DNA of 53,140 nucleotides from NCBI RefSeq assembly GCF_003611685.1, contig NZ_RAWC01000041.1, positions 1 through 53,140 on the forward strand. Reading direction: 5' to 3'. Under the pieces are notes generated by a model, which was not told where the DNA came from, did not search any database, and saw only the letters and a program-made list of their open reading frames with translations. The stretch's first letter is position 1, and every line of letters begins with the position of its first letter. Below are positions 2,478 through 4,467 of this stretch, piece by piece. The DNA comes from Corallococcus sp. CA049B. Lineage in GTDB: Bacteria > Myxococcota > Myxococcia > Myxococcales > Myxococcaceae. The position numbers and the translations under genes were made by a program.

Positions 2478-3248
2478 TCAGGGCAAAGGCGTTGAGCGTG
2501 CGCCGATGGCTGGAAAGCGTTCGTAGGTCCGCTTGAGCGCTTCCACGTGCACGGGGTTGTCGTAATCAAGCGGCGTCTCCGTGAGCTGCACGATCCACCC
2601 GCCTGACGGAGTGCGACGCGCCCGCGTGAGCAACTCGGCATCGCGAGCAGGATCCGGGAACCCGATGACCTCCGCGGCGGCAGCGGACCAATAGTTCACC
2701 CATCCAAGGAAAGAGGGAGTCTCCGGCCTGGGGCTCTTCTCAGGCATGTTGAGCATGGGGAGCCCACGGGGAGATTGCTCAGGTCCGTCCGGTGAGCGGC
2801 GGAACTGCTGCGCGACTTCCGAGCCGTAACCATACGGCGACGCGTGCCCCCAGAACGCACGAGCCCCTTCCGCCACGGCCTCAAGCAGAGCCGCCGCTGC
2901 TGCGATTACAGGTGCGTCGAGTGGCAGCTTGCCATGAACTTCAAATTGGGCCTGGCCGCCGGGACTGAAGAGCTCGGACCGGTCCCTTCCATTGACCGTC
3001 ACGGGATAACTCTCGTCCCCGTTGCATATGAGGGGGAATCCTCCATCCTCAATGCTCGCCAAGAGCCATTCGTCGCGCCGTGGCAATGCAATAAGGCGCC
3101 CGCCTTCTCCGACTTCCCACTCCAGTCGTATGCTGGGCAACGCCTTCTCCATCCCATTGACGATGGCGACGGGGCGGCTGTCGTCAACCAAGAGCGCAGG
3201 CGCGTAGACAATGAGAGTGAGTCTTTTTCGCGTAGTCATCGTTGACAC
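2478..3248 (-). CDS. Hypothetical 256-aa cytoplasmic protein, putative immunity protein for the upstream lipoprotein toxin
   Basis: The ORF has no signal peptide. It overlaps the stop of the upstream toxin gene by 13 nt, which indicates co-transcription. Confidence 0.55.
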   Translation of the reverse strand: MSTMTTRKRLTLIVYAPALLVDDSRPVAIVNGMEKALPSIRLEWEVGEGGRLIALPRRDEWLLASIEDGGFPLICNGDESYPVTVNGRDRSELFSPGGQAQFEVHGKLPLDAPVIAAAAALLEAVAEGARAFWGHASPYGYGSEVAQQFRRSPDGPEQSPRGLPMLNMPEKSPRPETPSFLGWVNYWSAAAAEVIGFPDPARDAELLTRARRTPSGGWIVQLTETPLDYDNPVHVEALKRTYERFPAIGARSTPLP

Positions 3249-4165
3249 CCTGTGACGACGATAATGAGAGTGGGTTCCAGTTCCTCCAGCGCCGCTTTGT
3301 GCGCCTCGGTGCTCACCCCAACGATGAATTCATATCCACAGGCCTTCGCGACCTCTCGCTCCTTTTCTAGCTGATCCAGTTCTTTCTCAATCTCTCTGTC
3401 CTGGATGAAATCATTATACGAGTCGAATCGGTGGGTCTTGATCTCCCACAGTTTGCGGACACCGACTTGCAGCGCATCGAAGCGTACACCGCCAACAAGC
3501 ACATCCATCCCGGGATAACGGTTGGGCGGAAACTTATCGGCACACTCGTTATGCGCACGATCTTCGCCCGCGTGACGCACGGGAACAGGCTCGCAGCTGG
3601 CGCGGCCCGTCCTGTCCACGGGCACAGGCGGCACCGGGGGCTGTCTGCCCTGGCCCGCTGGCTCCGGTTCCAGCTTGGGCTTCGGCTTCGCTACAGCATC
3701 TCGGGACGCAACCTTCGTCCCTCGTGAGCTCCCTGCTTCCTCGGGGTAGAGATGGCGGAGCTCATAGGCGTCCCATTCTTCCTGGATGGCGACGGCGACG
3801 ACCACCACGCCCAGGACGATGACGGCTCCCACGGCGATTTCAGGGGCCGCCAGCACGCAGAACCCGAGTCCCAAGGTCGCGGCGTCAGCGGAGGCGACCG
3901 TGCATCTTCCCGTGGTGTCACGGAACTCGACGCGAGCATGATCGAGCGCCGGATAGCACCGCTCCACCAGCACGGGCCAAGGCTGGGACGCCTCGCGGAC
4001 AACGCACCGCCCGTCATCCCTCCAGGGCAGCGCCGCCGCTCGTTGGAGGTTGGCCGCCCTCGTACCGCGGGCCGCTGGCGCACGGGCGCGTGGCTCCGTC
4101 GTGGCGCAGGCCGAAAAAATGAGCAGCAGCAAAAGGGCGCCGCATGTCCGGAGACGCATGGCCAT
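3236..4165 (-). CDS. Lipoprotein with a C-terminal PD-(D/E)xK-like nuclease fold domain, putative SitA-like polymorphic lipoprotein toxin
   Basis: The N-terminus is MAMRLRTCGALLLLLIFSAC, a type II signal with a lipobox Cys. This is followed by a proline- and charge-rich linker. The C-terminal roughly 100 aa contain GMDVLVGG...17 aa...LWEIK, a D...ExK pattern. GGAGG lies upstream of the ATG. Confidence 0.6.
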   Translation of the reverse strand: MAMRLRTCGALLLLLIFSACATTEPRARAPAARGTRAANLQRAAALPWRDDGRCVVREASQPWPVLVERCYPALDHARVEFRDTTGRCTVASADAATLGLGFCVLAAPEIAVGAVIVLGVVVVAVAIQEEWDAYELRHLYPEEAGSSRGTKVASRDAVAKPKPKLEPEPAGQGRQPPVPPVPVDRTGRASCEPVPVRHAGEDRAHNECADKFPPNRYPGMDVLVGGVRFDALQVGVRKLWEIKTHRFDSYNDFIQDREIEKELDQLEKEREVAKACGYEFIVGVSTEAHKAALEELEPTLIIVVTGCQR

Positions 4166-4236
4166 CTCTTCGCAACAATTGGAAAGCCTCCGAGTCCTGG
4201 GACTCGGAGGCTGATGGGGGCGCTTCCTTCAGGTGT

Positions 4237-4467
4237 CTACATCGGGTTGGTGCAGCGCCAGACCCCGCAGGAACCCTCACGCGAGCCACAGTCATACTGG
4301 CTCGAGCACGGCTTGCAGCTGGCCGAACAGATCATCTGGACAGCGGACGTCTGATTCTCGGTCGTCTCCGCCGTCGAGCCGGGAACCATGGCCAGCGCCG
4401 TGCCCGCCATGATGCCGATGATCAGCGCGAATCCAGGAATCGTCTGCTTCAGTCGCGATGCCTTCAT
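4237..4467 (-). CDS. Small secreted cysteine-rich peptide (76 aa; 6 Cys in the C-terminal 32 aa)
   Basis: The start is preceded by GGAGGAAAC. The N-terminus has a Sec signal (MKASRLKQTIPGFALIIGIMAGTALAMVPGSTA). The mature part carries C-x3-C-x2-C-x5-C-x6-C-x5-C. The gene lies 71 bp upstream of the toxin gene on the same strand. Confidence 0.55.
   Translation of the reverse strand: MKASRLKQTIPGFALIIGIMAGTALAMVPGSTAETTENQTSAVQMICSASCKPCSSQYDCGSREGSCGVWRCTNPM

Follow-up and report, generated by a model that had tools for sequence, protein, structure and literature searches.

What kind of system do three adjacent minus-strand genes in Corallococcus sp. CA049B encode, and how many of them belong to it? 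The window, which is the whole stretch of DNA analyzed here, comprises the 53,140-bp source contig. According to the original prediction, it contains a three-gene module consisting of a secreted Cys-rich peptide, a lipoprotein with a nuclease-like C terminus, and an immunity protein, arranged as in the SitA toxins that myxobacteria deliver by outer-membrane exchange (OME). The three open reading frames (ORFs) are real and located where they were predicted, and NCBI annotates them as D7W82_12395 (253 aa), D7W82_12400 (307 aa), and D7W82_12405 (76 aa). Chance ORFs can be excluded because D7W82_12400 matches Pfam DUF6310 (PF19829) over aa 184 to 307 (E = 2.6e-57, 192.7 bits versus a cut-off of 27) and D7W82_12395 matches Pfam DUF5953 (PF19378; E = 7e-112, 373.3 bits versus a cut-off of 25).

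We conclude that D7W82_12400 and D7W82_12395 form a genuine polymorphic toxin-immunity cassette, based on the pairing of the two genes, the swapping of carriers and C termini, and the existence of alleles that lack the toxin core and retain the immunity gene. Very probably the cassette has two genes rather than three, with a DUF6310 nuclease of the PD-(D/E)xK fold, made with a lipoprotein signal, as the toxin and a DUF5953 protein of the Imm52/TsiT type as its immunity partner. It belongs to a large family, not described before, that has copies in myxobacteria; the literature searched for DUF6310 and DUF5953 mentions neither. Searches with the three proteins returned no Pfam model above threshold other than DUF6310 and DUF5953 (the 76-aa peptide matched nothing in Pfam) and no meaningful NCBIfam match. 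In PADLOC the toxin was unmatched, and the sole match, a weak one, was to the immunity protein.

Extent of the cassette

The product of D7W82_12405, which starts with a signal peptide and contains six invariant cysteines, belongs to a family of 14 members, all from Corallococcus. Sought at 80 genome and 80 metagenome toxin loci, the peptide was absent from all 160. In C. exiguus the peptide gene adjoins a vault-protein gene and occurs without the toxin or immunity gene, and in the window a hairpin lies between it and the toxin gene. On these grounds the peptide is rejected as a module component, and the predicted three-gene layout is abandoned with it; the peptide is a Corallococcus backbone gene, an unrelated neighbor of the cassette.

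The hairpin that divides the peptide gene from the toxin gene (4185..4212, minus strand) has a perfect 12-bp stem followed by UUUCC and is terminator-like (dG, -26.8 kcal/mol; z, -3.6; 0 of 200 shuffles as stable). The upstream limit of the cassette is set by this hairpin, and the C. exiguus locus that lacks the toxin (L087) ceases to be homologous just past it, at window position 4182. At the other end, just past the immunity stop, a second terminator-like hairpin with a 14-bp G+C-rich stem (2434..2473, minus strand; dG, -40.6 kcal/mol; z, -3.0) is the end of the two-gene unit. Both were missed by a simple terminator scan because their T-runs are short, and folding confirmed them. The two genes between the hairpins have an atypical codon composition, as GC3 is 0.71 for the toxin gene and 0.69 for the immunity gene versus 0.89 to 0.98 in neighboring genes.

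A conserved third gene was sought by all-against-all tblastx of the 2-kb flanks. A large "upstream" cluster in this comparison was an alternative-frame artifact of the toxin's own 5' end and was discarded. The real recurrent neighbors, a 325-aa protein and a DUF2381 gene with a Ser/Thr kinase gene, occur at only about 10 of 80 loci, and they are absent from the window.

The proposed DUF6310 toxin and its carrier

The toxin gene D7W82_12400 (3236..4165, minus strand, as are the features of the protein given below) is a 309-aa ORF from ATG 4165, with the TGA at 3236 to 3238. It matches the NCBI protein at 100%, and 905 homologues were found. The most likely start is the second Met (ATG 4159), which would give 307 aa, because the NCBI protein and the paralogs begin there and GAAGAG lies 6 nt upstream.

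Five regions can be recognized in an alignment of 61 paralogs. The type II signal peptide and lipobox occupy aa 1 to 20 (...LIFSA-C20; 4106..4165), with Ala at +2 and Arg at +7. Cys20 is invariant in the 61 paralogs, whose consensus is L-S-A-C with Ala at +2. The lipobox that the original prediction had read from this protein is thus real, and it supports the predicted lipoprotein nature of the toxin. The +2 and +7 residues are of the outer-membrane type under the Myxococcus sorting rule, according to which outer-membrane lipoproteins have no Lys at +2 and no Ala at +7 (PMC5562445). The conservation profile then delimits an N-terminal domain (aa 21 to 96, conserved from aa 36 in the paralog alignment; 3878..4105) with an NLQRAAxLPW motif and three invariant cysteines (Cys54, Cys70, and Cys88). 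Next is a TM-like segment (aa 97 to 128, LGLGFCVLAAPEIAVGAVIVLGVVVVAVAIQE; 3782..3877) in which Cys103, P108, G113-A-V115, V121, V122, and I127 are invariant. This strongly hydrophobic stretch between the N-terminal domain and the Pro-rich linker had gone unmentioned in the original prediction. The linker itself, which had been foreseen ahead of the toxin domain, is located at aa 129 to 183 (3617..3781) and is rich in Pro, Lys, and Glu. In the conservation profile, no other part of the protein varies as much (mean entropy, 1.37; only 15% of columns at least 90% conserved). The C-terminal DUF6310 toxin domain (aa 184 to 309; 3239..3616) has a predicted PD-(D/E)xK fold and four conserved cysteines (Cys191, Cys208, Cys276, and Cys307), which could form disulfides or a metal site.

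An AF2 model of the DUF6310 domain (pLDDT, 94.1) bears out the expectation of a PD-(D/E)xK nuclease fold at the C terminus. The profile search by which the domain was to be assigned succeeded in part, in that it identified DUF6310; the link to the polymorphic-toxin family Tox-REase-5 is only structural, as Pfam PF15648 (Tox-REase-5) did not match the toxin at E <= 1 and a profile search against PDB sequences with DUF6310 did not retrieve TseT. According to the models, the relation of DUF6310 to Tox-REase-5 would thus be one of structure that sequence profiles do not detect. The spacing of the proposed D-x17-ExK arrangement needs correction: D221 to E241 is x19, and the Asp that matches the "FDG" of Tox-REase-5 is D230 (FDA-x10-ExK). 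Tox-REase-5 toxins have FDG and EAK motifs, and their listed immunity partner is Imm52 (Zhang et al. 2012). The toxin has FDA and EIK at the positions equivalent to FDG and EAK. In a set of 51 diverse DUF6310 domains, each of the residues D210, D221, D230, E241, and K243 is retained by 49 or more, and the predicted active site is D230...E241-x-K243 plus the conserved acidic residues D210 and D221. In contrast, the four conserved cysteines of DUF6310 are not among the listed Tox-REase-5 motifs. Overall, the model suggests that DUF6310 is a divergent restriction-endonuclease-fold nuclease of the PD-(D/E)xK class and the Tox-REase-5/TseT type, and its activity would presumably be that of a nuclease with DNA or RNA as the substrate.

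A search with the toxin C-domain against 1.84 billion cluster representatives yielded 208 relatives. DUF6310 lies at the extreme C terminus in all of them, in proteins of 200 to 1,130 aa, and its N-terminal partners include lipoprotein modules, eCIS_core/DUF4157, DUF4280, Transglut_core, CBM_2, and LysM. One protein that combines DUF4280 (PAAR-like) with DUF6310 is encoded beside a VgrG gene. Of 74 representatives with unrelated N termini, 52 have a comparable hydrophobic 19-mer in the 130 aa that precede DUF6310. Since a helix recurs before DUF6310 whatever the carrier, it appears to move together with the toxin.

The carrier is also exchanged in the other direction. When the N-terminal module alone was used as the query in a metagenome search, it was found joined to other C termini, each with a different downstream gene. 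At one locus (L162) the C terminus is Ntox16 (PF15523; 27.8 bits, cut-off 25) and an ankyrin-repeat gene follows, and at others there are small Cys-rich C termini of three types (L102, L131, and L134; L116 and L119; L169), with unrelated downstream genes of 154 to 266 aa. In this respect the module acts as a delivery or "escort" unit that can be reused. The lipoprotein toxin is restricted to genera of the Myxococcaceae and Archangiaceae.

The DUF5953 partner and its retention

The immunity gene D7W82_12395 (2478..3239, minus strand) encodes a DUF5953, Imm52-like protein that, as predicted, has no signal peptide. The annotated product has 253 aa from ATG 3239, not the 256 aa proposed originally. 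The claim that its start overlaps the toxin stop holds; given this start, the overlap is the 4 nt of an ATGA and not 13 nt. An ATGA junction is found at about 60 of 79 related loci.

By sequence, the relation to Imm52 (PF15579) is below the 25-bit Pfam cut-off (E = 0.032, 14.3 bits) and confined to the C-terminal third of the protein. A structure model (pLDDT, 84.7), for which the alignment was built from search hits, has as its best structure matches the Imm52 protein PA3908/TsiT (9oz0_A; score, 14.1), BPSL2088 (4rho_B; 13.8), and PA0821 (7drg_B; 12.9), and in this predicted structure the DUF5953 partner has the Imm52/TsiT fold. The chain 9oz0_A is the partner of the toxin's best structure match, and a single solved effector-immunity complex provides the counterparts of both the toxin and immunity models. 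Along the immunity protein, the N-terminal two-thirds are variable and mosaic and the C-terminal 75 aa are highly conserved.

A DUF5953 gene lies directly downstream of the DUF6310 toxin at all 79 testable loci in myxobacterial genomes, the co-occurrence to be expected of an immunity partner, and it follows the toxin at 59 metagenome loci too. Outside myxobacteria, DUF5953 is also found downstream of eCIS_core-DUF6310, VgrG plus DUF4280-DUF6310, and Transglut_core-DUF6310, and the immunity gene is present in 5 of 5 such contexts with downstream sequence. The strict pairing of toxin and immunity gene thus spans at least four unrelated delivery architectures. Swapped N-terminal modules, swapped C-terminal toxins, and an immunity gene immediately downstream are the marks of polymorphic toxins (Zhang et al. 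2012), and all three are found here.

Divergent toxin-immunity pairs number 3 to 8 per genome, some as tandem arrays. At the syntenic site, C. exercitus SDU142 has a deletion that corresponds to window positions 3357 to 3548, beside an intact immunity gene. The deleted stretch encodes the catalytic core of the toxin (aa ~207 to 270). The catalytic core has likewise been lost and the immunity gene kept at one further locus (L164), and the toxin ORFs are interrupted beside intact immunity genes at three others (L036, L060, and L074). The Imm52 fold, the strict co-occurrence, and the retention of the gene where the toxin is deleted all support the proposal that the downstream gene encodes the immunity protein.

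Delivery and relation to known systems

With regard to structure, the closest counterpart of the cassette is TseT-TsiT (PA3907-PA3908) of Pseudomonas aeruginosa, a T6SS nuclease effector of the Tox-REase-5 family (PF15648) with an Imm52 (PF15579) immunity protein. TseT and its homologues are DNases neutralized by their own immunity proteins. The two systems nonetheless share only 7 to 15% identity, with no significant Pfam or profile match, and in place of PAAR/T6SS the nuclease domain is carried here by a lipoprotein signal, a Cys-containing domain, and a TM helix. The eCIS (DUF4157/eCIS_core) and PAAR-like (DUF4280) toxins share both the C-terminal DUF6310 and the downstream DUF5953, and usually have a hydrophobic helix and a Pro-rich linker just before DUF6310, as here; DUF4157 has been described in the literature as marking the N termini of eCIS toxins. 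In contrast, the window protein has a Sec/lipoprotein signal in place of those N-terminal domains, and no contractile-injection genes lie near it.

The likeness to SitA/SitI that the original prediction proposed is upheld at the level of layout. Both systems have lipoproteins with outer-membrane-type sorting residues behind a type II signal and lipobox, a conserved N-terminal module joined to swappable, polymorphic C-terminal nucleases or other toxins (here a predicted nuclease), and a downstream gene for a cytoplasmic immunity protein. In both, many divergent loci of foreign composition occur in each genome, and only in myxobacteria. The most likely route is delivery as a cell-envelope lipoprotein to neighboring myxobacteria, in a SitA/OME-like manner. 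In the lipid-anchored toxin, the small Cys-containing N-terminal domain would be followed by a single hydrophobic helix and then by a flexible Pro-rich linker that leads to the C-terminal nuclease, and the helix next to the toxin domain may help the nuclease cross the inner membrane of the recipient. Some T6SS effectors have TM segments that aid crossing of the target inner membrane. The translationally coupled cytoplasmic DUF5953 protein would bind the nuclease and block it.

Membership in any of the six SitA families described so far (SitA1/2, 3, 4, 5, 6, and 7), with TraA/B-dependent delivery by OME and the 6-Cys peptide as an accessory factor, is a different matter, and we consider it very unlikely. 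It would account for the outer-membrane-type lipobox residues, for the predicted nuclease with its downstream immunity gene, and for the restriction to Myxococcaceae and Archangiaceae, and one SitA3 allele does carry Tox-REase-5. However, compared by length, about 183 aa precede the toxin here (about 163 aa from the lipobox Cys to the toxin domain) versus about 375 aa in SitA escort domains, and a TM helix is predicted within this shorter region. In NCBIfam and Pfam, the pre-toxin region was matched by no model, SitA and SitI included, and the NCBI name of the protein is just "DUF6310 domain-containing." No sitB is present at the locus, and there are 3 to 8 copies per genome rather than the 15 to 80 sitAI loci. 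Against the peptide as an accessory factor, it is missing from the 80 genome and 80 metagenome loci, exists in C. exiguus without the toxin, and is set apart by the terminator-like hairpin.

The helix raises a further question about SitA/OME-like delivery, in that it speaks against straightforward sorting to the outer membrane by the Lol pathway. Where a stop-transfer-like helix comes after a signal peptide, the expected product is an inner-membrane protein whose nuclease lies in the cytoplasm of the producer, and this topology, as predicted from the sequence, does not fit outer-membrane lipoprotein exchange. The N-out/C-in arrangement implied by the signal peptide and the strongly hydrophobic 30-aa segment would instead suit a membrane-tethered intracellular TA or anti-phage (abortive-infection) module, in which a periplasmic lipidated sensor is linked by an inner-membrane-spanning helix to a cytoplasmic nuclease that DUF5953 holds until a trigger arrives. 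An immunity protein that is translationally coupled and lacks a signal peptide would be appropriate to such a module, and that protein weakly matches the PADLOC candidate defense protein PDC-M17B (E = 0.0029); Tox-REase-5/Imm52 pairs have also been proposed in the literature to be TA-derived. We nevertheless regard an intracellular module as unlikely. Helix, linker, and DUF6310 also end effectors that are clearly exported (PAAR-like beside VgrG; eCIS_core), the N-terminal module is also joined to other toxin domains that come with other immunity genes, each genome has many divergent copies, and the toxin itself has no PADLOC match. Alleles that have lost the toxin and retained immunity are expected if the threat comes from neighbors. 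It is hardly credible that the protein is a nontoxic lipoprotein of the envelope whose nuclease domain serves housekeeping or DNA uptake and whose downstream gene is unrelated to it. PD-(D/E)xK folds are common among housekeeping enzymes, but the match of both proteins to the chains of one effector-immunity complex, and the position of the domain at the extreme C terminus of T6SS and eCIS effectors, speak against such a role. So do the strict pairing, patchy distribution, atypical GC3, and multicopy divergence, which are hallmarks of conflict systems.

Returning to the polymorphic toxin-immunity cassette, we propose functions for two Pfam families of hitherto undefined function on the basis of predicted structure: DUF6310 (more than 900 homologues of the protein found) as a Tox-REase-5-like nuclease toxin and DUF5953 (more than 1,100) as an Imm52-like immunity protein. 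The analysis also newly defines, in social myxobacteria, a lipoprotein module for delivery whose toxins can be swapped; in these organisms, toxin-immunity loci of such kind set self/non-self boundaries. Other SitA families need host entry proteins. As a tentative and somewhat doubtful extension, the window toxin might be the founding member of a seventh, unrecognized family of myxobacterial kin-discrimination lipoprotein toxins, with a short escort module that has its own membrane-inserting helix. After OME or vesicle transfer, the helix and linker would drive the nuclease across the inner membrane of the recipient without host entry proteins, and T6SS and eCIS effectors of other phyla would have acquired the same unit of helix, linker, and DUF6310 by borrowing it. 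If the loci are exchanged by OME, SitA-based predictions of compatibility among myxobacterial isolates miss 3 to 8 loci per genome. The helix that recurs before the toxin, whether the carrier is of the lipoprotein, T6SS, or eCIS kind, is a candidate portable device for translocation across the inner membrane.

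Variation within the toxin and immunity proteins

The orthologous toxin gene of C. exercitus SDU142 (related locus L090, 6293-7026), counterpart of window 3239-4165, carries a deletion of approximately 192 bp that corresponds to window 3357-3548 and removes the catalytic core. Identity is about 90% on both sides of the deletion, and the DUF5953 immunity gene is intact. We conclude that this locus is a natural allele in which the toxin has been disarmed and the antidote kept.

The nuclease domain of the toxin contains four conserved cysteines in all (C191, C208, C276, and C307; window 3239-3616, minus strand), of which C191 and C276 are near-universal. 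The C-terminal cysteine is also missing in 7/7 sequences that lack C208, and this joint loss suggests that the cysteines may form two disulfides or act as paired ligands. In the immunity protein (gene at window 2478-3239, minus strand), at least two alternative sequence cassettes occur among paralogs at residues ~130-175 (e.g., ASPYGYGSEVAQQFRRS... versus ATPDDAALDIAYQTAPT...). These alternatives suggest recombination between paralogous immunity genes at this stretch, which is probably a specificity region.

Alternative architectures of the toxin and its N-module

Several representative DUF6310 proteins (P0126, P0127, P0128, P0131, P0144, and P0149) are short myxobacterial lipoproteins of about 205 to 230 aa in which a Pro-rich linker alone separates the lipobox from DUF6310. 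As both the N-domain and the hydrophobic helix are missing, these proteins show that the same DUF6310 toxin has a second lipoprotein architecture, a minimal one. The lipoprotein N-module, for its part, is fused in metagenome loci L102, L131, L134, L116, L119, and L169 to C-terminal domains of ~40 to 60 aa that carry 6 to 8 cysteines and matched no Pfam family. Downstream of each fusion lies a gene without annotation that encodes 154 to 266 aa, and it is possible that these small domains and the downstream genes are new toxin-immunity pairs.

Neighboring genes

In roughly 10 of 80 loci (L004, L008, L014, L016, L023, L038, L039, and others), the toxin-immunity pair is followed by genes for a DUF2381 protein (a Myxococcus paralogous family) and a Ser/Thr protein kinase, about 50 to 900 bp downstream of the immunity gene; this neighborhood is not present in the window. 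Upstream of the toxin lies the gene for a secreted 76-aa peptide (D7W82_12405; window 4237-4467, minus strand), which belongs to a family of 14 members, found in Corallococcus only, with six invariant cysteines in the pattern ICSxSCKPCxxQxxCGxxxGSCGxWRC. Genes of this family usually adjoin a vault-protein gene, and the peptide is independent of the toxin cassette. In the window, a 755-aa homologue of the eukaryotic major vault protein is encoded divergently to the peptide gene (4711-6978, plus strand); its orthologues in loci L087-L090 have Pfam Vault and MVP_shoulder domains on record.
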